From a virus (lineage: Duplodnaviria; Caudoviricetes), in the IMG/VR virus record IMGVR_UViG_3300030746_000040, positions 1-27,211 of that record: DNA of 27,211 nt, one strand, 5' to 3'. The notes under the pieces were generated by a model. That model made no database searches, was not told the origin of the DNA, and saw nothing but the letters and a program-made list of their open reading frames with translations. Shown here piece by piece: positions 1 through 25,839 of the stretch; positions within the stretch are counted from its first letter, which is position 1, and every line of letters begins with the position of its first letter. A program made the position numbers and the translations under genes.

Positions 1-331
1 ATAGAAGGGCTAACTTTGCTTGCTCTGCCTTGAGTATCATGTAGGGCAGGACACCAAGCAAAAGTTGTTTGCGATTCTTCGCTCCGGTCGGACGCCAAGC
101 CATTGATGGTTTGTGTCGCGGATCGCGCGAAGGTCGTGTATAATACTGCCCGCCAAAGTTCTTAATGAGAAAATCCATCAGGCGTTTATCAGTATTGACG
201 ACGGTCAACTCGACTGCGTATGTCTGAGCGGTATCAGACCGGTCGGGTTTATTGTGTTTGTTAATCGCAATGGTGCCTTCACCATCAATAATTGCGGCCA
301 GATACGACCAATGAGCTTTATTATTTGTCAC
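1..331 (-). CDS. LAGLIDADG homing endonuclease, intron-encoded, truncated by window edge (absent from ORF track)
   Basis: Manual translation from GTG at 331: MTNNKAHWSYLAAIIDGEGTIAINKH...ELTVVNTDKRLMDFLIKNFGG...VLPYMILKAEQAKLALL. YLAAIIDGEG is a LAGLIDADG motif; GAGGT upstream could act as RBS. Confidence 0.92.
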   Translation of the reverse strand, partial: MTNNKAHWSYLAAIIDGEGTIAINKHNKPDRSDTAQTYAVELTVVNTDKRLMDFLIKNFGGQYYTRPSRDPRHKPSMAWRPTGAKNRKQLLLGVLPYMILKAEQAKLALL

Positions 332-412
332 AATCTTACCTCGGTATTGTCTGAGTGTATCAGAGTTTCACCGATTTAGTCAAATTTTACTACGGCATTA
401 TGCTGCTAGTTT
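1..412 (-). mobile_element. Group I self-splicing intron in the major capsid gene (5' part; 3' end outside the window)
   Basis: Exon end CUACGGU (419-413) pairs with intron GCCGUAG (396-390), giving a 7-bp P1 with the U.G wobble at the 5' splice site. Then AAAUCGGUGAAAC...AAUACCGAGGUAAG (P/Q-like elements forming P4). The capsid frame stops 4 codons into the intron and an endonuclease ORF follows. Confidence 0.9.
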
Positions 413-952
413 ACCGTAGAACATGCCGTCAGACTTCGGCTTCGCGTTCTGACCGCGGAGGCTCATTACTGCCTGACGCGCGATGGACGCGGTGAAAAAT
501 TCGTTGTCTGCCAGGGCGATGTTCACGTTGCCTGCCACTGCGGCTTCGAAGGCCGAAGAGGTCAGGGAGTTCACCGTGAGAGCGGCGCGATAACCCATTT
601 CGCCAGCGGAGTTCTCAACAATCGGGTCGATGGCAGTCTCGATCAGAAGATCAGAGAAAGACATGTAATCGAAGTATTGATTGACGCTGGTTTTGTTCGT
701 TGCGGTCGTGGGCGCGATTCCGGTGCCGGGCTGACCTTCAGACCCAGGCGTGGTGTTTGCGCCGAGAACCTGATATCCAAACATTTGGATCGTCTTGCCA
801 CTGCGCTCAGGTAGGACACGTCTCTCGGTCGCAGCCTGGAAGGGCAGATTAGCCTTCAGATTTTCGACGGCAACTTTGTCGTACCAAATTGTCGCTAGAT
901 GAGTCAGTGAAGAAGTGGTGGATACTACTGAAGCTGGGCTCAAAGAAGCCAT
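413..952 (-). CDS. Major capsid protein, N4-gp56-like, exon 1 (180 codons ending ...GMFYG)
   Basis: Motifs LP.RSGKTIQM, EG..G, QY.DYMSFSDLL.ETAIDP.VE...EMGY.AA; position directly after scaffold and portal; too short for a full capsid protein without splicing. Confidence 0.88.
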
Positions 953-2261: not shown

Positions 2262-4313
2262 TTATTGATCTCCTGTTGCGATCTGGTCGTCGTGTTCGAA
2301 GATGTGTTTGAAGAAGAGTTCTCCGGCCTTATCGATTGAGGCACGGTCGAGTAGTTGGCCCTTGTTCTCAGTCTTGACTTGCTCCATTTGAGCTTCGTGA
2401 GTCATCTGAGCTTGTTGCTGCTGTTGTGCGGCTTGGGCTTTCTGTTGGTCGGCCGCGATGTCCTGCGGCGTCTTATTGACGATGACAGAGGACATGTTGG
2501 GCCAGCCGGATACGTCGAAGCTCATCTTGACGAGTTCGGAGACGTTCACCTTCTTGCCTTCCTGGGCCAGCGAATCTATGACGGGTTGAGTCAAGAGGAA
2601 CTGGTAGAAGAGAGGTAGGTTCTGTTTCATCGCAGTCTTGGCTTGCAGGCGTGAACCGGCGAGCATTTCGAAATCGACTTGCGCATTGATGAGGTCGAGC
2701 GTGTCGCCCTGGTATGCTATGCCGAGTTCTTGAGTCAGGATGCGATCTATGTCGTCTGCTTCCATGAAGAGGCCGTTCATTTTGTGAAAGGCGTCAAGCA
2801 TTGGGACGAACACTTGGTATGAGAATTGTTCAATAATAGACTGTAGGCGTGTTCCGGTGCCTGAAGCCAAACTATTAACACCTGTTGCTGTGCGCGTGAT
2901 AGATGACTTATCAGACGGCATAGAACCCTGTACCGCACTTTCGTTGGCAGCAGTTCTACGAGCAGCGCGACTATCTGATGCAGAGAGAACGGCTTGGGTT
3001 TCAGCAATGGGGATCGGGTTCCGTTTCATAACGGTAACACCTTCGGGGGTGTCTGAATCAATGATACCGCCCGGTCGCATCCGCAGCTGTTGAGTTTGGA
3101 CGTTCGAGCCGCGCACACGTTGAAACATGCCGTTCAAGTTCAGCGAGAGATCATCTAGAAAAGTGTTGATGACTCCTTGCTGCATCCTTTGTTCGTTGCC
3201 GATAAGCATCCCAAAGCCGATGCCCCAGAATGAGCCCAGAACATCCGCCTGGGTGACTGAGAGAAATGGAATAAACCCCAACGGATTTGGCTCATTGCGA
3301 ATGATAGTTTTCGACTGAAGGACAGTGTACACCCTATCGTTCGTCCAATACTCCATGACTTCGAGAGGCTGATTGCGTTTATCATGCGTGGAGTTCCAAT
3401 GGCGCGGTTGTGGTTGAAACTCCTGAAAGAGATCCAACTTCGGCTGTTCGAGCGGATTCTGACGAGGGACTTCTTCGGGTGGGAACTTGAGCTTGATCAA
3501 ATCTTCGAGCGAAGGTATATCGTAGCCTTCGTAGCCACGAAGTTTGTCGAGGTCGAGCGGCGTCATGTAATTGATGTGGATGACGAACTTGCCCTTGCGA
3601 ATGTCGGGGCCGGTCAAGCCTGGGTCGACGAGCACATATTTGTTGTTGACCCATTCCAAAGTTGGCCGATTGACTTTGATTTTTACGTCAACCGCTTTCT
3701 TCTTCGTCTTCGGTTTGATGCGAACGCCGCCGCCATCTCTGAGCCCATGCCATTGATAGGGGGCTTCATTGATGTAGGTGCGGCGCGTAGTCTCGTAAGT
3801 TTCCCATCCGATCTTCCAGATGCCTGCGCCGTGCAAGAGGGCGGATTTCAATCCCAACCGGTACTGCTCACGAACGTCGGCCTGCTTCATTTCGTAAGTC
3901 AGGAGTTGATCGTTCGCGCGCGCCGCATCCATTGGTGTGTTGGGTTTGGGCTTCGACATGAACGGTGGATCGTCTGCGAAGAGGCCCTGCATAAGTTGAG
4001 GCAGGACCGATTCGACATGCTCATAGACGAGCGGCATTCCGAGATGCGAACGCGGGATGTTGGTTCCATCCCACATGCGGACGGGCACCTTAAACAGATA
4101 GAGACGTTCCTCCATCTGCCACTGTAGGAGCCATCCTTGAGTTTGGAGCCACGTCTCAGCCTGAGCGCGGTCCTGCAAGACTATTTTGAGCGCCGTCAAA
4201 TCCTTATCGGGTTTGGTGAGGTCCAGCTGTAGTTCACTGGGTTCCGTAATCAGTTGGAACGCTTCGCCGTTTTGGAAGGTATTGCGCGGAACCAAGTCTT
4301 CGAGAAGCGCCAT
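2262..4313 (-). CDS. Portal protein (P22-like/podovirus type)
   Basis: 683 aa after TerL; ALLHGAGIWKIGW, VLVDP, IPF, FWGIG, TRTATGV motifs; Gln-rich C-terminal tail. Confidence 0.9.
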   Translation of the reverse strand: MALLEDLVPRNTFQNGEAFQLITEPSELQLDLTKPDKDLTALKIVLQDRAQAETWLQTQGWLLQWQMEERLYLFKVPVRMWDGTNIPRSHLGMPLVYEHVESVLPQLMQGLFADDPPFMSKPKPNTPMDAARANDQLLTYEMKQADVREQYRLGLKSALLHGAGIWKIGWETYETTRRTYINEAPYQWHGLRDGGGVRIKPKTKKKAVDVKIKVNRPTLEWVNNKYVLVDPGLTGPDIRKGKFVIHINYMTPLDLDKLRGYEGYDIPSLEDLIKLKFPPEEVPRQNPLEQPKLDLFQEFQPQPRHWNSTHDKRNQPLEVMEYWTNDRVYTVLQSKTIIRNEPNPLGFIPFLSVTQADVLGSFWGIGFGMLIGNEQRMQQGVINTFLDDLSLNLNGMFQRVRGSNVQTQQLRMRPGGIIDSDTPEGVTVMKRNPIPIAETQAVLSASDSRAARRTAANESAVQGSMPSDKSSITRTATGVNSLASGTGTRLQSIIEQFSYQVFVPMLDAFHKMNGLFMEADDIDRILTQELGIAYQGDTLDLINAQVDFEMLAGSRLQAKTAMKQNLPLFYQFLLTQPVIDSLAQEGKKVNVSELVKMSFDVSGWPNMSSVIVNKTPQDIAADQQKAQAAQQQQQAQMTHEAQMEQVKTENKGQLLDRASIDKAGELFFKHIFEHDDQIATGDQ

Positions 4314-4349: not shown

Positions 4350-5894
4350 CTAGCCGGTAATTCCAGCGCCAAGTAGGTTGTCGTCGTCTGCGTTGAAGAA
4401 GACCGAAGTGATCTCGTCGTCTTCCTCTTGCGAGTCAGGTATGATGTCTACCATCGTCGCGAAGAAGAGGAGCATGGAGATCGCGTCCGGTATGTCATCG
4501 TGTGAGAAGCGCGGGAACTTGAGGAATTGTTTCTTCAGTTCGATCCATACGCTAGGTGGGATGGCAGTCGAGAAATAGAGTTTGTGCTGGGCCATCAAAG
4601 GTTGAAGAGAGAGGATGCGTTCCTCTTTGCTCTTGAACGGATTGGTTGGCATCCAGATGATGTTGAACCGCTTGCCGATGGTGCGCTGTAGGTTGTCGAG
4701 CGCCGGGGCTAGGAGTTTAGAGCCGCCTGCATTTTCGATGCCCACTTGCCTAGGCCGCCACTTGAGCGCCTGGGCAGCAATGATCTGTACCAGAGCATGT
4801 GGCGAATATCGGCCAGCAACAACATCCAAGACGAATAGATTGCCCTTCGTGTCATACATTCCGGTGATGCCAGCGGTGAAGTCTGCGCGCTTCTTTTCAC
4901 TGAAGCCGAGATCCCACGTTTGAAACACGCTCCCGTTTTTCGGGATGTGCATATGGGGCATGTGGTGGGATTCGATCAGTTCGTCGGTGAAGGTTGCGGT
5001 GTCGACGGGTGTGGGGTCGAGCAGGTATTGGCAATTGAAGATGAATTCGTCTTGCTTGCGGATTGAGTTGAGGAAGTCGAACGTGAAACGCTCTGGGAAT
5101 AGCAAGGTGACATCGCTTGCTGATAGAGGCGTTCCTTTAACATAAGCGGGGTTAGTGATGACCCAGGCGGGGCGTCGGAATTTGCGAATCCATGCGCCGT
5201 TCTCTGGATCTTCCAACCATGCGTAGAGGTCCGAATCGCTGTAAGGTGTCCCGATGACATGAATGTATCCGTAGGGCTCCACGATGGAGCGCATGAAGAT
5301 GAATCGGTCGATGACGTTCTGAAGAAGTTCGGGGGTGCGGATGTTGTCGGCATGGACAGCATCGTCAATGAACATGACATCGCAGTGTGGACCTGCCTTG
5401 ATGGAGTCCATTGAGAAGGCCACGCACGAAGCGTCTACGAGGACTTTAGTTCGATTGGGCAGAGTAAATTCAGTTGTCGTTCCCCAATCTTTGTTTGGAG
5501 GAGGACAAAACTCGGGGAAGAGCCGTCGGAGCTTGGGGTTGTGCTGAAAGTGGGATTTGACTGCAACAAGGGAATCCGAGGCGCGATCCAACTTACCAGC
5601 CCCAAAAAAGAGCCGAATGTTAGGGTAGTTGAGGAGCCACTGGACTGCCGATGCAATGGCGAGGGTGGTCTTGAAGTGTCCGCGGGGATCATATAGCGAC
5701 ATGCCTTTCTCATCTGATAAGTCGGCAATTGGTGTGCCGGGCTTCATCTGGTAGAAGTGGTTGGCGACCGGTTGGTGGACTCTATCCACTAGGTCTTCGT
5801 AGCCCAGGATTTCGCGAGCGAGCCACATGAGATCTGTGCGCGCGCGGTACCTAAGCTCTTTTTGTCTTTCCGCTACACTTGCCTCGACCGGCAT
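4350..5894 (-). CDS. terL: Terminase large subunit
   Basis: Walker A PRGHFKTT, Walker B VMFIDD, GTPY, FNCQYLLDP, nuclease motifs WDLG, DFTA, IE and HDDIPDAIS. Confidence 0.95.
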   Translation of the reverse strand: MPVEASVAERQKELRYRARTDLMWLAREILGYEDLVDRVHQPVANHFYQMKPGTPIADLSDEKGMSLYDPRGHFKTTLAIASAVQWLLNYPNIRLFFGAGKLDRASDSLVAVKSHFQHNPKLRRLFPEFCPPPNKDWGTTTEFTLPNRTKVLVDASCVAFSMDSIKAGPHCDVMFIDDAVHADNIRTPELLQNVIDRFIFMRSIVEPYGYIHVIGTPYSDSDLYAWLEDPENGAWIRKFRRPAWVITNPAYVKGTPLSASDVTLLFPERFTFDFLNSIRKQDEFIFNCQYLLDPTPVDTATFTDELIESHHMPHMHIPKNGSVFQTWDLGFSEKKRADFTAGITGMYDTKGNLFVLDVVAGRYSPHALVQIIAAQALKWRPRQVGIENAGGSKLLAPALDNLQRTIGKRFNIIWMPTNPFKSKEERILSLQPLMAQHKLYFSTAIPPSVWIELKKQFLKFPRFSHDDIPDAISMLLFFATMVDIIPDSQEEDDEITSVFFNADDDNLLGAGITG

Positions 5895-6034: not shown

Positions 6035-6110
6035 TGGCTGGCTCTCTTGGATTCGAACCAAGAACGACGCGGTTAACAGCCGCGCACTCTGCCGTTTGAG
6101 CTAAGAGCCA
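6035..6110 (-). tRNA. tRNA-Asn (GUU), CCA encoded
   Basis: TGGCTCT/AGAGCCA acceptor stem, GCTC/GAGT D arm, CGCGG-CTGTTAA-CCGCG anticodon arm, CTTGG-TTCGAAT-CCAAG T arm, G discriminator plus CCA; 76 nt. Confidence 0.97.
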
Positions 6111-7309: not shown

Positions 7310-7699
7310 TTAGCCCTGGATGTCGTTTATCGCGTCGTACTGATCGGCAACTGGCGTCTTGGGCTTGGAGAAACCTGAGACGCGCTCGTAGGCTGTCAGA
7401 GCTTGCAGTTTGATGCGAGACTCTTCGGCGTTGTTGTAGATGTCGATGTACATGGCGCGAAGTTCTTCGGATGTGGGTAACTTAGCGACGGGCTTGGGTT
7501 GTATATGGTCGCGGATGAGCCCGGCAACTGATGGGTGGGCTATGACGGTGAGGCCGTAGGATCGAGCTTGCGCGGGGTCTTTGATGTCATAGTTTTCCAA
7601 CACAGCCTGAGTTAGATCTTGGTTGATCGCGAAGGAGTCCAGAAAACCCTGTTGTTTGTGGGTTAGCAGAGGATAGCGCGCATCTTGTTTGTAACTCAT
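7310..7699 (-). CDS. Probable terminase small subunit
   Basis: N-terminal LT.KQ..F......DLTQAV...Y......A......HPSV...I helix-turn-helix pattern and a RIKLQAL segment typical of TerS; upstream of terL. Confidence 0.65.
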   Translation of the reverse strand: MSYKQDARYPLLTHKQQGFLDSFAINQDLTQAVLENYDIKDPAQARSYGLTVIAHPSVAGLIRDHIQPKPVAKLPTSEELRAMYIDIYNNAEESRIKLQALTAYERVSGFSKPKTPVADQYDAINDIQG

Positions 7700-7905: not shown

Positions 7906-10008
7906 TTAGAGTTGGCAAGCGTATTCTAACGTGATGGAGGTCACGCCGGATACGGTTTGCGTATTGACGATGGTGAAGTGGGCAGTCGTGGTTGAGTTGC
8001 TGAAGAGTCCGTAGTATGCGACCCCACCAGATTGCTGAAGGGTGCAAAAGGGAGCGGCCGCTAGACTGGAGGCGAAGTTCAACGTGCCCAGTACCTCCGA
8101 GGTAGTGGCAGATGCGTTGGTGATGGTAATGAAGCCACGCGATTGTGTTGAGCCAGCAGTGACGGAGCAAGAGGTGACACCGGTGCCAGCTGCGCAGGTA
8201 GGCAGGGAACCATTTGAAGTTAGGATCGGTCCCTTGAATGTTCCTGTGCCTTCGAAGTCGCCGGAATTGACCTGGGTGACGTTGGCGGTTGTGATGGACG
8301 CGATGGCTAATGTGGTTGTTCCGCCGTTGCGCCCTAAGTCGGGATTGTTACCAATGACGACGAAGTGGCCGGATGTGCCCGTCTTGAGAACTGCGTCTCC
8401 GATGATGATGGAGCCGCCGCCGCTTATGGGCGTCTGATAGACTGAGGCGCAGGATGAGCACGTCGAGGCTGCGGTCAGGTTGATGTAAGTGTTCTGTTGG
8501 CCGTTGTCGGTTACGTCTACTCCCGCTGTGCCCGCGCCGTTACCTTCGAGATCGGAGTTGATGAAGGTGTTCAGCTTGTTGGATGTGCCAGGATTGACGC
8601 CGTTGCCGGTGGTATTGATGAAAATGCCGTTGCCGGTGAGGTTGTCTTCCGATGTGCCGCCCATAAAGGTCAGGTTGGTAGCGGAAGTCAGATACCATCC
8701 GGTGTTGGAAAGACCCTCGTCGATGGCGTCGATTACTGAGGAATCGGTTGAGTCGATGGTGCCACCGATTGTGTTGCCGCCGAAGATTTTGCCAAAGGCA
8801 GGAACGGTGTGCGAACCAGATTGGATGCCCTGGTAGAAGGCATCGTTCACTGAGCAATGGAGCGACTGGTAGGTGTTCGTGACAGCGCCGTGGACATCGA
8901 GGCAGGCGTTGACCGCGCCCCACATCTTGATTCGGCTGAAGTCGGAGCGGTTGACGAAATCGAGACGGAGGGCGTCAGTTGCGTTGGCCGCGCCGCCATA
9001 GATGTAGAGGTCGCGGATGTCGATGGAATTGATGCCGTTGGAGCCGTAGGAGCCGCTGCCGGTTGTGCCGTTGACATAGAGAACGGCGGCGACGGTTGAG
9101 CCCCCGGTGTACTCAATCTGGGTCATGTTGCCACCCATACCCCAAAGTCCGACGCCGCTATTGGTGATAAGCTGCTGAACGGTCGATTGGATGTGGACGA
9201 CGCCGAGTTGCAGCGTGACGGCCGCGGTGGTCGATCCCGCTAGGCCGAGTGCGAACATGTTGGTGGCGCACGTCTGCGTGCCTGAGAAGTTCTGCCCATT
9301 GACTAAGGGGCGACTGTTTGCGATGGCGTAGATGAGCGCGGCATTGATCTTGGCGCACATGTCGGAACCGGCGAACTGATCGGCTTGGACTACTCCGTTG
9401 ATGGTGTAGGATGAGATTCCCCAGGGCGAGGGGATGATTAGGTTGCCTTGGAGTGTGCCACCTGTGATGGGAAGAGCCGCAGTAGTTGACGGGGAGTTGG
9501 CCGCGCACTGAGGTACATATTGGGCGTTGAAGCCTGTGAAGATGGGAGTTGCGGCTGGGCAGTAGGCTCCAGCGGAGTTGCCGATGACGGGCGGCACGAA
9601 ATTGACCGGAACCTGGGTACTGAGGTTGATGGTGGAGTTATCGACGAGTCGGTAGGTGACGGTGGGCGCGATTGGGAATCCATTGTCCATCCATGTGAAG
9701 GCGTAGGTCGTGTAGGATTGGGTGCCGCAGATGATCTTATCGTTGCCGGGTAGCACGCCGGTCACAACTTGAGAGGCGTTGGCCGTGAAGGGTGCGGCGT
9801 AGGTCTGGTTCGGCGTGTTGGAGATGGGCAGGTTGTTGTAGTAGGGAACCGCGCCATTGCCGCAGCCGACTATTTGGGCGCGCAGCGTGAGTACGTCGCC
9901 GGAGTTCAGGGTGAAGGAGCCAGTGGCCGTGAAGTTGACGAGGCCGATCTGCGCCATCCCCGGTAGCGAGGAGAGCAGTACTGCGAGGATGGCGAAGATG
10001 CGTTTCAT
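7906..10008 (-). CDS. Tail spike/fibre-like beta-helix protein with N-terminal signal peptide (start reassigned to 10008)
   Basis: AAGGA RBS, then MKRIFAILAVLLSSLPGMA|Q; LPITGGTLQGNL fibre motif, ADQFAGSDMCAKINAAL beta-helix cap, G/S/T/N-rich repeats, C-terminal LPTC...GST.SRG.ITI domain. Confidence 0.75.
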   Translation of the reverse strand: MKRIFAILAVLLSSLPGMAQIGLVNFTATGSFTLNSGDVLTLRAQIVGCGNGAVPYYNNLPISNTPNQTYAAPFTANASQVVTGVLPGNDKIICGTQSYTTYAFTWMDNGFPIAPTVTYRLVDNSTINLSTQVPVNFVPPVIGNSAGAYCPAATPIFTGFNAQYVPQCAANSPSTTAALPITGGTLQGNLIIPSPWGISSYTINGVVQADQFAGSDMCAKINAALIYAIANSRPLVNGQNFSGTQTCATNMFALGLAGSTTAAVTLQLGVVHIQSTVQQLITNSGVGLWGMGGNMTQIEYTGGSTVAAVLYVNGTTGSGSYGSNGINSIDIRDLYIYGGAANATDALRLDFVNRSDFSRIKMWGAVNACLDVHGAVTNTYQSLHCSVNDAFYQGIQSGSHTVPAFGKIFGGNTIGGTIDSTDSSVIDAIDEGLSNTGWYLTSATNLTFMGGTSEDNLTGNGIFINTTGNGVNPGTSNKLNTFINSDLEGNGAGTAGVDVTDNGQQNTYINLTAASTCSSCASVYQTPISGGGSIIIGDAVLKTGTSGHFVVIGNNPDLGRNGGTTTLAIASITTANVTQVNSGDFEGTGTFKGPILTSNGSLPTCAAGTGVTSCSVTAGSTQSRGFITITNASATTSEVLGTLNFASSLAAAPFCTLQQSGGVAYYGLFSNSTTTAHFTIVNTQTVSGVTSITLEYACQL

Positions 10009-10016
10009 GAGTTTCC

Positions 10017-11582
10017 TTAGTTGGTTTGAACGTCGTTGGTGCCGGAATCTGTCACCGGAGTCGTGTGGGTGAAGTTCGCGGCGTCGATTGCATAGACGTT
10101 TGAAGTGGTGACGTAGGAGCAGCCAGAATCCAGGGTGACGCCATAATTCATGTAGCCGGATATGGAATTGGCGCTGATCGTGGATCTGACTAACGAAACC
10201 CCTTGTATGCCAACGGAGTTGTTGCCGCTGGGCGCTTCGATGATGTTGCCGGTTATGGTGGCGTTGCGAACCGTGTTGAGCGCGATAGCTGCTGTGACTT
10301 GATTCAAGAAGTGATTGCCGACAATGGCAATGTGCGACGAAGTAGAATTGGCAAGCACACCATATGCCTGAGAGCCATTCTGACCAAACTCCATATTGGA
10401 GATTGTGACGCCGGAACTGCCGGTGACGTTGACGCCAGCTGAGTTGGATGCTGAACCCGCTGCGCTTGTGCCAGACCAGCCGCCATTGATTTCGACGGAT
10501 GAGCCGCAAGCCTGCGTCATGCCTGAGAGGACGATGCCCGCTTGAAAGAAGGAATCATTGATCGTGTCGAGGAGATGGATGTCGGAGCACGAGTATGATC
10601 CGCCTCCGCCGAGATACTGGAAATACTCCCCGTAGGTGACAAATGCGGTTTCGAAGTTGTCGATCATGAAGTCGTTCAGCTGGGAGCCGGTGACTAGCAG
10701 GCCAACAGATTGGACGCCGCTGTAGCCAGGGTAGAGCGTCTGGATAAAGCTGTGTCGGAGGCGAAATGATTCGGCTGAGTAGGTGCCGTTGACTAGGATG
10801 CCGTAGACCGGGACCGTGGGATTGAAGCCGTTCGAGCCCCACATGCCACCAGAGTTTTCCATGCGACCGGTTCCATATGCGCCTGCGTTGTTGAAGTAGA
10901 AGTCGCAAGCTGAGTCGAAGGACCAAACGTCGTCGACGACCCAACCACCCGCATATTCGATTGAGAGGCCAGCTGCTCCGACGCCAATGCCTGTGCCGCC
11001 CTTGCAGGAGCCAGTTGATACGCCGGTGTCAGCGAGGGTGCGGATGATGGAGAAGGATCGGAATTGATTGAAGGAGACTGGGTTGGATAGACCGCCACCA
11101 GCTGAGGCCGGATTGAGTTCAACAGCGGTTGCAGTTGCGGAGTCGATCACGAGAGCGGAGATTGGTAAGGTCTGAAGGAGTTGGTTGGACGTGGTTCGCG
11201 TCCATGCGCCCGGCGATGATCCAATGATGTTGATGCTGGACTTGTTAATGATGATGGGCGCGGTAATGCGATATTTCTTATTGGCTAGGTTGCAGTTGCC
11301 CTGCGGAATCGTGAGGGCTTCGAGTGCATTGATGCAGGCTTGAATGGCGGTCGTGTTGTCGGTGCCGACTCCTGCTGCGCCCGTTGCATCGCCTACTGCG
11401 CCATAAGATTCGACGGTGTAATTGACCGCGGAGGTGCCACCACTTGAACAGGCCGTGAGTGCCCATCCGCCTGTGCCATTGGTCTGCATACATTGACCGG
11501 CTGCAACTGGTGTCGTGGTCTGCGCCTGAACGTAAGAACCTATGAGGGGCAGGAGCGCGAGTAGAAATAGAAGTTTGCGCAT
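10017..11582 (-). CDS. Pectate-lyase-3-like right-handed beta-helix protein with signal peptide
   Basis: MRKLLFLLALLPLIGSYVQA|Q; VESYGAVGD...TDNTTAIQACIN cap motif; repeated ISN/IVGNHF/ITGNII/ISANSI beta-helix rungs; GAGGA RBS. Confidence 0.85.
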   Translation of the reverse strand: MRKLLFLLALLPLIGSYVQAQTTTPVAAGQCMQTNGTGGWALTACSSGGTSAVNYTVESYGAVGDATGAAGVGTDNTTAIQACINALEALTIPQGNCNLANKKYRITAPIIINKSSINIIGSSPGAWTRTTSNQLLQTLPISALVIDSATATAVELNPASAGGGLSNPVSFNQFRSFSIIRTLADTGVSTGSCKGGTGIGVGAAGLSIEYAGGWVVDDVWSFDSACDFYFNNAGAYGTGRMENSGGMWGSNGFNPTVPVYGILVNGTYSAESFRLRHSFIQTLYPGYSGVQSVGLLVTGSQLNDFMIDNFETAFVTYGEYFQYLGGGGSYSCSDIHLLDTINDSFFQAGIVLSGMTQACGSSVEINGGWSGTSAAGSASNSAGVNVTGSSGVTISNMEFGQNGSQAYGVLANSTSSHIAIVGNHFLNQVTAAIALNTVRNATITGNIIEAPSGNNSVGIQGVSLVRSTISANSISGYMNYGVTLDSGCSYVTTSNVYAIDAANFTHTTPVTDSGTNDVQTN

Positions 11583-11896
11583 TAGTCCTCTTGGTATAGG
11601 ACGACTGGCTGAGTCGCCGGTGTGATGGTGTTGGATGTGCCGTTGTAAATTGTGTAGGTTGCGGTCCAGCCAGTGAGAGCAGCGCCGGTGATTGCGATGG
11701 TGGAGACTATGAGGCCTGCTGGGAGGCCGGTCGTGAAGAAGACCGCGGTCTTGCGATAGGGTCGGAAGTTGCGTGTCACGGGTGTGGAGAAGGCGACGGT
11801 CTGGTCAGGATTGATCGCTGAGAAGGTGGTGCTGGCCGAGGGATTGAAGATTGCAACGGCGGAACGCTGAAAAGGGAATCGCGTTAGCCCCGGCAT
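11582..11896 (-). CDS. Hypothetical beta-rich protein
   Basis: TAATG-coupled on both sides; Thr-rich. Confidence 0.75.
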   Translation of the reverse strand: MPGLTRFPFQRSAVAIFNPSASTTFSAINPDQTVAFSTPVTRNFRPYRKTAVFFTTGLPAGLIVSTIAITGAALTGWTATYTIYNGTSNTITPATQPVVLYQED

Positions 11897-13128
11897 TATT
11901 TTCCGCCTATGACAGAGAGCAGTTGCGTAGAGATGGCTTGAGCAAAATCAGAATAGCCGGGGCCATTAGGATGCAAAGTATGGCCATAAAACAAAAATGG
12001 CGCAATGTTTGCTCTCTCGTATGAGCCCCACCTGTCAAAGAGGTCGATAATCGGAATCTGATTGGTTATCGCGAGCTGGTACATGGCCGTTATATATTGC
12101 TGTTGTGTGGCAAGAGCTACCACGCTTATAGAGCTCGGTGGGCCAGGAGTCAATATCACATCGCTAGTCGCTTTCCAAGCTGTGATCATGGCCTGCAGAT
12201 TGGTGGTGAACACAGCCACAGAGGTGCTGTTGGCTCCTTGCCAGTTGTTGATGCCCAGATCGATGAGAACAACGTCAGGGGCTTGGGTAGGAACGGCGTT
12301 AAGCGGAGACCATGGCGCAACCGCAGATGCGTAACTAATGCCAGCAACGGTTCCGGCTCCCGCGCCGCCAATACCACAGTTGGTAACTTGAATAGAGCCT
12401 ACGGTTGTATTAGAGGCTTCGATGCCGACAACATAGATTGCTGCACCAGAGGACCAATTTAAATTGAGCGTATGTGAGCCGACAGCACCCGCTGCGATAG
12501 TTACAGAAGTTAATCCGGCAGCACCGCCCGAAGAGAAAGTGGTTGTGCCGCCTGCATCAACGGCATAGGTTCCAATGCCACCGTTGTTGGTGACGTACCA
12601 CAATTTGAATTGATTGACCTGACCGGTAGGAGTGAATGCCAAAGACGCAGTGGCCGCGGATGCGGAGTACAGAAGGCCACCCGTTGAAGGCGAGTTTAAG
12701 GCAGTCCAACCAGAGCCGATTACCAGGCGAGCATCATTACCAAATTCCGGCGCTAGGCCATTCGCCGCACCCATGACAGAATCGCGATTGGCAGGCATCA
12801 GCGTAGAGTTCAGCTGCTTGGCGAGAAGTGTAGGCCAGGATAAGACAGTGATGTCTCCTGTATCCGACGTATTAGTGGAATAATCACCATAGGTCGTAGA
12901 GTCGCCCACGGCGTACACTCGGCAATTACCGGCGTTGATCTTGACCTTTGCGGTGCAGGCGACCCAATGCGGCATGAGATAAGGGCTGATGTTGCCAGCG
13001 AAGTTGGGCGAGGTGAGGTTACGGACTGATCCGCCCCCAATACCCGATTGGGCCATTAGCAGAGTAGGAAGCAGAAATAAGAAAGCCATCAGTTTACGTA
13101 TGACGAGCCGACCGGACGAAATTCCCAT
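11896..13128 (-). CDS. SGNH/GDSL hydrolase (esterase) with signal peptide
   Basis: Block I VGDSTTYG, block II NCGIGG, block III DLGINN, block V HTLHPNGPGY; N-terminal RKLMAFLFLLPTLLMA|Q; GAGGA RBS. Confidence 0.88.
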   Translation of the reverse strand: MGISSGRLVIRKLMAFLFLLPTLLMAQSGIGGGSVRNLTSPNFAGNISPYLMPHWVACTAKVKINAGNCRVYAVGDSTTYGDYSTNTSDTGDITVLSWPTLLAKQLNSTLMPANRDSVMGAANGLAPEFGNDARLVIGSGWTALNSPSTGGLLYSASAATASLAFTPTGQVNQFKLWYVTNNGGIGTYAVDAGGTTTFSSGGAAGLTSVTIAAGAVGSHTLNLNWSSGAAIYVVGIEASNTTVGSIQVTNCGIGGAGAGTVAGISYASAVAPWSPLNAVPTQAPDVVLIDLGINNWQGANSTSVAVFTTNLQAMITAWKATSDVILTPGPPSSISVVALATQQQYITAMYQLAITNQIPIIDLFDRWGSYERANIAPFLFYGHTLHPNGPGYSDFAQAISTQLLSVIGGK

Positions 13129-13138
13129 AATAATCCTC

Positions 13139-13459
13139 TTAAGAGAACGAAATGTGTGCGACTTGAGCGGATGCGGAGCCGATGATGCCGATGCGGCCGG
13201 GGTCGGATGCGGAGCCTGCCACGGTGAACCAGTCGCCGGGATTGAGTGCGCGCGCGTACTGAGTCGCGGTGACTGCGGGAAGCCAGGAGCCGACGTAGAT
13301 AATGCCGGTGTTGGATGGGTCCGCCTGAATGGAGATGCTGGCCTTCGGATGGATGATGCGGGGCACCTTCTGCCAATCGGTGATCAGGGCAGCCGGGATG
13401 ATTTGAACGGCTGTGGTTCCTACGGTAACTGGCGCGTATGTGCCTAGGTTATTGCTCAT
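13139..13459 (-). CDS. Hypothetical small beta-sandwich-like phage protein, first gene of the late operon
   Basis: VTVGTTAVQI...IQADPSNTGIIYVG...LNPGD pattern common in small virion-associated proteins; AAAGG RBS before MSNN. Confidence 0.75.
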   Translation of the reverse strand: MSNNLGTYAPVTVGTTAVQIIPAALITDWQKVPRIIHPKASISIQADPSNTGIIYVGSWLPAVTATQYARALNPGDWFTVAGSASDPGRIGIIGSASAQVAHISFS

Positions 13460-24717: not shown

Positions 24718-25508
24718 AGAAGAGTCAAGCAGGGTTGTGGGTAGTAGATTTTGATAAGCATAGTCCACATGTGGACTGGCCCACGCATAACGCGATGATG
24801 GATTTTGTGAAGAGAGGGCCGAAGCTGAAGGGCTTCATCTTTGGCGGCGATCAGAACAGCAATGACGAAATCTCGCACCACAATAAGTCTAAGATTCTTT
24901 TTCGAAGTCCTGGCAGTTATGCTCGTAACACAGAGCTTTTCAAGACGAAGATTCTTGATCCTCTGGAGGGCGCTCTACCAAAAGGGGCCATCAAAGTGTG
25001 GATTGAGGGAAACCATGACGACTGGGAAAATCAACTCGTGCAAGAAAACCCCGAATTGCTCGGAACTGTCGAGCGTCGTATTCTATTGGATCTGGATCGT
25101 AGGGGGTGGCACTTTGTTAGGACTGGTCACATATTTAGTCTTGGGAAGCTGAAGGTCATCCATGGAGAGACTCTTACAGGCTTGGGCAACCAGGCTGCTG
25201 CGAATCATGCTATCCGCGCCGTACTCGCGTATGGGTCATCTGTGCTTTACGGCCACATCCATGCTCCGCAGTCGGCTTCTCGTATTGCTCCGTTTGGTCA
25301 GAAAGACAAACACATGGGTTGGTGTTCGCCTATCACTGGTGCAACCAACCCCAACTACCTGCGCAACAAACCGACTGCGTGGGTCAACGGATTCACGATA
25401 GTGGAGGTGAGGGACGATGGCACCTTTCAGGTTTATCCGGTCGTCGTTACTCGCGGCCGCTTTAGCTTTGCCGGTGTGGAGTATGGCGCAAGAAAGAAGT
25501 CAAAGTGA
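24711..25508 (+). CDS. Calcineurin-like metallophosphoesterase
   Basis: DKH, GGD, GNHD, IHGE and GHIH motifs; W..GF C-terminal motif. Confidence 0.9.
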   Translation: MVKKSQAGLWVVDFDKHSPHVDWPTHNAMMDFVKRGPKLKGFIFGGDQNSNDEISHHNKSKILFRSPGSYARNTELFKTKILDPLEGALPKGAIKVWIEGNHDDWENQLVQENPELLGTVERRILLDLDRRGWHFVRTGHIFSLGKLKVIHGETLTGLGNQAAANHAIRAVLAYGSSVLYGHIHAPQSASRIAPFGQKDKHMGWCSPITGATNPNYLRNKPTAWVNGFTIVEVRDDGTFQVYPVVVTRGRFSFAGVEYGARKKSK

Positions 25509-25839
25509 TCCCGCAGATCCTTTGTGTCACACTACTGATGGCGTCACTGTTTGCTATCCTCCTCCCACGCTTCACCAGCGAGACGAGGAGAAGGAGCCGA
25601 CGGTCGTTGACATCCTCAATGGCGTCGAAGATGCGCGCGGACTCCTCGACACCGCCAAGCGGCTGCCAGAGGCGCAGTGGATGGGCGCAGAGATAGCTGC
25701 GGCCCAGGATGCGCTGGACGAGTTCGACAAGAACACGACCCATCGGACAGTGGTCGCGCGCTACTTGGAATTGAAGCACGCGATGGACTTGGTAGAGATT
25801 CAACTGGAACACATTCGAAACGGAGACGACATCATCTAG
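25417..25839 (+). CDS. Hypothetical protein, possibly exported
   Basis: GGAGGTGAGG RBS; MAPFRFIRSSLLAAALALPVWSMA|Q signal-like N-terminus overlapping the phosphoesterase 3' end; helical C-terminus. Start uncertain. Confidence 0.55.
   Translation: MAPFRFIRSSLLAAALALPVWSMAQERSQSDPADPLCHTTDGVTVCYPPPTLHQRDEEKEPTVVDILNGVEDARGLLDTAKRLPEAQWMGAEIAAAQDALDEFDKNTTHRTVVARYLELKHAMDLVEIQLEHIRNGDDII

Follow-up and report, generated by a model that had tools for sequence, protein, structure and literature searches.

Why would a tailed phage encode spike-like proteins that appear destined for export from the cytoplasm of its host? The question is raised by the IMG/VR virus record IMGVR_UViG_3300030746_000040, of which we analysed positions 1 to 27,211 (27,211 nt; the window). 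Three large genes in this stretch, here called A, B and D, begin with predicted Sec signal peptides ending Ala/Gln, where the slash marks a candidate cleavage site. Classical tailspikes fold in the cytoplasm without such signals, and the same compartment is generally regarded as the place where particles of tailed phages are finished. From sequence comparisons we conclude that the signal-bearing cluster is real and conserved, and that it would represent a tailspike variant with a predicted extracytoplasmic assembly step. The cluster comprises the following features:

13139..13459, minus strand: E, 106 aa, signal-less and low-charge, opening the cluster (ATG 13459 taken as start)
11896..13128, minus strand: D, 410 aa, SGNH esterase
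13051-13128, minus strand: predicted signal peptide of D (residues 1-26, LMA/Q)
11582..11896, minus strand: C, 104 aa, signal-less and Cys-free, between D and B
10017..11582, minus strand: B, 521 aa, beta-helix protein
11523-11582, minus strand: predicted signal peptide of B (residues 1-20, VQA/Q)
7906..10008, minus strand: A, 700 aa, tailspike-like protein
9952..10008, minus strand: signal peptide of A predicted by heuristic for Sec and signal peptidase I (SPI) (19 aa, GMA/Q)
9589..9951, minus strand: N-terminal all-beta domain of A (N-domain, residues 20-140), candidate virion anchor (model pLDDT, the predicted local distance difference test, 89.9)

A sequence-only reading of the window had described A, B and D as heading a late operon upstream of terS. 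Signal-less E precedes them and signal-less C separates D from B, so the three genes are not contiguous. The operon label holds as far as strand and gene packing go, and a scan for promoters and terminators performed no better than chance. For the label terS, given to 7310-7699, neither Pfam nor PHROG offered support.

Signal peptides were called with our own n-, h- and c-region heuristic, not SignalP. It is blind to Gln and asks for a basic n-region, nine uncharged residues with a mean hydropathy of at least 2.2, and small residues at -3/-1. A, B and D, whose N-termini are as the sequence-only reading had quoted them, are all called, with the basic n-region, hydrophobic h-region and small -3/-1 residues of a Sec/SPI substrate; the candidate sites include the three listed above. 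On shuffled sequences the heuristic fired for A in 27/2000, for B in 35/2000 and for D in 56/2000 cases. Among homologues it called 17 of 22 for A, 17 of 19 for B, 10 of 13 for D and 27 of 32 further matches to the A N-domain (71/86 in total); these 32 include three apparently unrelated sequences, which were retained in the count. Inspected by eye, the misses are mostly truncated, have the signal further inward or fail narrowly, and one (P0037) is a distant signal-less match. A signal-like N-terminus, ending SMA/Q, is also seen in a 140-aa protein of the early region (window 25417-25839, plus strand) that matches nothing in Pfam or PHROG.

The true starts could have lain downstream of the hydrophobic segments, as the sequence-only reading had cautioned. 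Instead, ribosome-binding-like sites precede the signal-bearing ATGs, with AAGGA upstream of A (10008) and AAGAGGA upstream of B (11582) and D (13128). No such site precedes an alternative Met of D at 13089. Overlap with B, together with the ribosome-binding-like site of the ATG at 10008, led us to reject an 867-aa version of A starting at TTG (7906-10509).

The same reading noted several Cys; A has 14 and B nine, and D has just three. Past residue 30 the number of Cys is even in 59 of 72 signal-bearing homologues, and their median Cys content is 1.8%. Signal-less comparators have 0-0.94% in nine of ten cases and 1.6% in the tenth. The homologues are related, so the p-values of the Cys tests overstate significance. 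In the N-domain of A, which has 37 matches among 1.84 billion representatives, Cys49 and Cys94 are invariant in all 38 aligned rows. Because the signal-like N-termini are conserved, a Cys pair is invariant and Cys counts are mostly even, we regard the predicted export of A, B and D as well supported.

The description of the products as two beta-helix proteins and an SGNH esterase was borne out. Protein A consists of a signal peptide, the N-domain, a linker, a beta-helix (about residues 205-555) and a C-terminal beta domain (604-699). It has no Pfam match, and the beta-helix was assigned from an AlphaFold2 model with a mean pLDDT of 71, in which the linker (130-199) is poorly predicted; only monomers were modelled. 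Phage proteins account for 27 of the 38 listed Foldseek rows, including the first 12 (Dettilon gp208, Sf6, K64-1, K2-2). The best E is 1e-6, TM-scores by query are low (0.17-0.34) and identity is 8-16%. The other 11 listed rows comprise one adhesin and otherwise glycan enzymes of bacteria or fungi. A also matches phrog_18522, a tail protein (1.9e-7). Judged by the model, A is predicted to fold like phage tailspikes. A PDB sequence search with its alignment found nothing, the alignment found no additional viral loci, and neither A nor B had a tblastn match among 50,697 phage records.

The top Foldseek matches are podovirus beta-helix tailspikes (P22/Sf6/HK620, the Det7-type gp208, and Klebsiella and Acinetobacter depolymerases). 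Like A, these have an N-domain, a linker, a beta-helix and a C-domain; their N-domains are swappable, and a domain resembling the P22 head-binding domain occurs in some relatives. Unlike these cytoplasmic, signal-free tailspikes, A, B and most homologues have signal-like N-termini, with many apparently paired Cys and Gln at +1. The N-domain of A has no detected link to a known anchor, and identity to solved tailspikes is just 8-14%.

In B the signal peptide is followed by a segment of about 30 aa with two Cys and then by the beta-helix (Pfam PF13229 Beta_helix, E 2.4e-6; phrog_7458 tail spike, 8.4e-5). Its best PDB sequence match is 7chu, titled Geobacillus virus E2 ORF18 (E 2.7e-10). D has a linker of about 25 aa after the signal peptide and matches Lipase_GDSL_2 (PF13472, E 5.9e-15). 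The SGNH blocks GDS 75-77 (Ser76), G252/G255, N294 and H386 are conserved in 12 aligned sequences. The Asp of DxxH is missing from D, which has His383 there; the position is Asn in nine, Asp in two and His in one of the 12. We infer that D uses a Ser-His dyad. In 54 phage records, mostly Arthrobacter, D has matches of about 30% identity that are annotated as esterase, minor tail or tail fibre proteins. Phage tail SGNH esterases (Arthrobacter; the signal-less L027, L040 and L044) have the same N-terminal helix motif at 28-38% identity, but D has a signal peptide in place of their anchor and His at the usual Asp. Distant D homologues at 12 other viral loci are mostly signal-less, several of them in head or tail modules, with neighbours judged by eye. 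D homologues at L035, L036 and L042 have Sec-like N-termini and that at L038 a twin-arginine-like one, so exported forms do not seem confined to the present group. These four adjoin tail or lysis genes, and the phages encoding them do not have an acidobacterial appearance.

To which phage do the genes belong? A 45,917-base contig (G001) holds the rest of the genome, and by blastn its two ends map to window positions 11851 and 12025. As the ends overlap by 175 bases, the genome appears circular and complete at about 45.7 kb; an exact terminal-repeat test found none, and circularity rests on the blastn mapping. Further assemblies of 46.2-46.7 kb exist. The genome encodes an SU10-type portal and adaptor, a GH108 endolysin and a family A polymerase. 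The following genes also lie in the window:

4350..5894, minus strand: terminase large subunit (phrog_38, E 8e-63)
2262..4313, minus strand: SU10-type portal (PF23899, E 2.7e-30; 27% to Tunturiibacter phage Tunturi 3, its best match among cultured phages)
398..952, minus strand: 5' part of the major capsid protein gene (phrog_1357; 36% to Tunturi 3 gp6)

Portal, capsid, adaptor and nozzle all match Tunturi 3, a cultured podophage of Tunturiibacter, and on these similarities the window is part of a podophage related to this Acidobacteriota phage. The major capsid gene is interrupted by a LAGLIDADG endonuclease open reading frame (window 2-331 and 398-952; L012 16252-17844). Tunturi 3 gp6 aligns to it in two pieces (20-176 and 187-343), and the gene is unbroken in the relative L016 (326 aa); the interruption is likely a group I intron. 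A tRNA-Asn(GTT) lies at window 6035-6110 (minus strand), immediately upstream of the terminase large subunit, and Tunturi 3 also has a tRNA-Asn. A ClpP-family protein (PF00574, E 5e-28; L011 15387-16013) is encoded in the replication region, distant from the head genes.

Chromosomal genes with 45-60% identity to a small signal-bearing moron, which lies between adaptor and nozzle, occur in five of 151 genomes from the phylum of a Bryobacteraceae metagenome-assembled genome, a phylum we take to be Acidobacteriota. Because the best cultured relatives and the moron gene both point there, the host is likely an Acidobacteriota lineage, and a Bacteroidota host was rejected on the same grounds. The sequence-only reading had linked the Gln at +1 to the pyroglutamate Q-rule, Gln directly after the predicted SPI site, which is described in Bacteroidota (PMC5837995, PMC10653852). 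In the text available of these two papers Acidobacteria are not named (0 matches for 'acidobacter').

Gln stands at +1 in all three proteins and after the candidate site in 58 of the 71 signal-called homologues. In 400 kb of three genomes bearing moron homologues (L078-L097), it follows a candidate site in 28 of 53 chromosomal signal-like open reading frames, with 8.5 expected, so the Gln at +1 is no pointer to Bacteroidota. The count was 10 of 33 in a mixed sample from eight genomes of the host phylum and one of 13 in 150 kb of E. coli. Of 121 genomes of the likely host phylum, 33 encode a plant-type glutaminyl cyclase (PF05096), two of them as weak matches. Three of the five moron-bearing genomes have the enzyme, one is without it and one lay outside the sample. 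Gln at +1 thus seems to be largely a habit of the host lineage, perhaps stronger in phage proteins.

If A, B and D are exported, are they parts of the virion? Among 50 hand-listed genes of the apparently complete genome, the only low-charge proteins of at least 400 aa are A, B, D and the nozzle, and no signal-less spike gene was found. Between adaptor and nozzle Tunturi 3 has the signal-less gp14-gp18, two of them annotated as tail fibres; the present phage has just two small morons there. One of these (L012 13244-13537) has an Ala/Gln signal peptide and no in-frame ATG, GTG or TTG, with ACG at the expected place; the other (L012 13106-13243) is a 45-aa two-helix membrane peptide, and both are absent from L016. 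In the tail adaptor (L012 13634-14395), four Cys (75, 82, 86, 91) of one loop are kept in L016; the loop could be a metal-binding site or become oxidised once lysis occurs, possibly at a spike-docking surface.

Relatives give similar indications. The cultured podophage Tunturi 1 has signal-like gp12, gp13, gp14 and gp17 (10-32 Cys) directly after the tail protein gp11, with gp14 annotated as tail spike and gp17 as virion structural protein. The complete relative G124 has six signal-bearing low-charge proteins, five before the terminase and the sixth in the post-capsid module, after a signal-less gp14-like gene. One of the six has the Pfam phage depolymerase C-terminal domain, and G124 has no signal-less low-charge protein above 300 aa. 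Across relatives, passengers are common to several N-domain types, and collagen/tail-fibre segments occur in homologues. Residues 19-125 of homologue P0013 score 0.92, on a scale uncalibrated for parts, against an Atlas cluster in which PF09008 Head_binding makes up 83%. Another N-domain type matches the signal-less Tunturi 3 fibre gp15 (E 4e-4, reciprocal 3.7e-5, 2112 sequences; hhalign 30%). The profile used (f3) included Tunturi 1 gp12, so that the gp12 match is circular; it is the alignment that groups gp12 with P0012/P0013. Similarity to signal-less proteins of structural modules is seen for both C and E: C is paralogous to a 111-aa gene of the post-capsid module (E 0.0014) and E matches Tunturi 3 gp30, annotated 'virion structural protein' (phmmer E 0.001), each among 2112 sequences.

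Weighing these data, we lean slightly towards A, B and D being exported, disulfide-bonded receptor-binding appendages that are added to particles at lysis, a reading that includes the mixed case in which A joins the virion and B or D does not. The proteins would leave the cytoplasm through their predicted Sec signals, be cleaved before Gln, be cyclised by a host glutaminyl cyclase, and fold in the periplasm with paired disulfides, probably into trimers. Finished particles would gain them once lysis opens the inner membrane. A could dock on the adaptor or nozzle through its N-domain; for B and D, the short N-terminal stretches or small partner proteins (C and E, for example) could serve. B and A would then cut or bind surface polysaccharide, which D may de-O-acetylate. 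We can only guess at the benefit, which could be oxidative folding together with keeping empty spikes off assembling tails. P22 spikes can join finished heads in vitro. Sec export of a phage protein is known from M13, where pIII, the receptor-binding protein of filamentous phages, has a Sec signal and is disulfide-bonded in the periplasm; pIII differs in being membrane-anchored and added during extrusion, with no lysis and no tailed capsid. The sequence-only reading had proposed such maturation outside the cytoplasm as one of two options; genome content and relatives favour it and do not show it.

A number of observations count against this reading. B and D are almost without an anchor, having just 25-30 residues ahead of the catalytic domain. 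The N-domain profile of A does not retrieve Tunturi 3 gp14/gp15, so direct homology to these is unsupported; profile comparison with other N-domain types gave a probability below 1%, and an Atlas search gave only weak DUF859 matches (best 0.81). Pfam does not call PF09008 on P0013, the Tunturi annotations are computational, and in IMG/VR the contig is listed as linear, with 58% completeness. The cluster of the distant relative G123 keeps a signal-less 494-aa protein beside a signal-bearing dockerin protein. The 951-aa nozzle has a long low-charge insertion, which alone could bind the receptor. A complex prediction with three A N-domains and two adaptor copies scored 0.00 and was counted neither for nor against binding.

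Several of these points would fit proteins that are exported and never reach virions. A free depolymerase/esterase kit would strip host capsule or exopolysaccharide (EPS), letting progeny escape and get to new cells, and the nozzle alone would bind the receptor. The near absence of an N-terminal anchor in B and D, the nozzle insertion, the secreted dockerin-bearing protein of G123 and the position of the cluster upstream of the terminase, outside the tail module, all argue for it. So does WceF of Pantoea stewartii, which is exported by the twin-arginine translocation (Tat) pathway and combines a beta-helix of tailspike type with a head domain like that of P22; it acts on glycan and is not a virion protein (PMC7949094). 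As WceF keeps this head domain although it belongs to no virion, possession of an anchor-like domain is no proof of attachment. WceF differs in being a chromosomal EPS-cluster gene product exported after folding; the present genes are phage-encoded, have Sec-type signals and lie beside virion genes. Against the free kit, neither the present genome nor G124 has a signal-less spike, homologues show swappable N-domains with anchor-like links and collagen/tail-fibre segments, and Tunturi 1 has such genes immediately after its tail protein gene. We consider it possible, and clearly less probable than attachment at lysis.

Another option is that the proteins remain with the infected cell, in its periplasm or at its surface, where they would alter or mask the receptor polysaccharide and block superinfection or adsorption of progeny to debris. 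The export signals and an O-acetylesterase-like enzyme would suit receptor alteration, and Q-rule secreted proteins of Porphyromonas gingivalis prophages are proposed as host-membrane modifiers in the part consulted of PMC10367356. The distant relatives G123 and G124 each encode an integrase. None was found in the present phage (Pfam on hand-listed open reading frames; tblastn with the integrases of these two relatives), which weakens the superinfection exclusion that the sequence-only reading had raised. Moreover, the genes run in the same direction as virion genes, devoting about 5 kb to spike-like proteins would be costly for such a role, and the virion would be left without an evident spike. 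This option seems improbable. We think it very unlikely that the N-termini go unused for export, as vestiges of captured host genes, through downstream starts or through cytoplasmic removal (for instance by the phage ClpP-like protein) before normal spike assembly: the signals are heuristic predictions from sequence, the phage encodes a ClpP-family protein, and P. gingivalis phage capsid proteins with predicted signal peptides are thought to be cut by prohead proteases (PMC10367356, seen in part), but ribosome-binding-like sites precede the signal-bearing starts, signals are kept in most divergent matches with differing N-domains, Cys appear paired, and Gln at +1 fits the host export habit.

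A close parallel to A, B and D is gp12-gp17 of Tunturi 1 (PP887698). In this podophage of Acidobacteriota, too, large Cys-rich genes with signals, mostly Ala/Gln, are clustered. Its cluster follows the capsid and tail gene and does not precede the terminase, and tblastn of A, B and D against the phage collection gave no match from it. Signal peptides are not mentioned in the part of PMC11924767 available, supplements excluded. The P. gingivalis phage Q-rule proteins also have Gln after the predicted SPI site and show phage use of host Sec; as far as the portion seen of PMC10367356 goes, they are of unknown function and not spike-like, and the host here is likely Acidobacteriota. In the titles and abstract openings searched, with most subscription papers outside the search, signal-bearing tailspikes of tailed phages were not described.

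Taken more broadly, we give about an even chance to the idea that a wide group of Acidobacteriota podophages completes its virions outside the cytoplasm, with all tailspikes Sec-exported, disulfide-bonded and pyroglutamate-capped in the periplasm and clipping onto spike-less particles at lysis, in hosts with their own unreported Q-rule. Tunturi 1 on Tunturiibacter psychrotolerans is a cultured phage-host pair with the same design, so the idea is directly testable. If true, the phage assembly pathway would gain a compartment, with spikes folding in the periplasm and attaching at lysis, and disulfide-rich receptor-binding proteins would become possible. Particles of co-infecting phages could then swap spikes after lysis, and signal-peptide genes of soil phages would have to be annotated as virion parts and not as host-metabolism genes.

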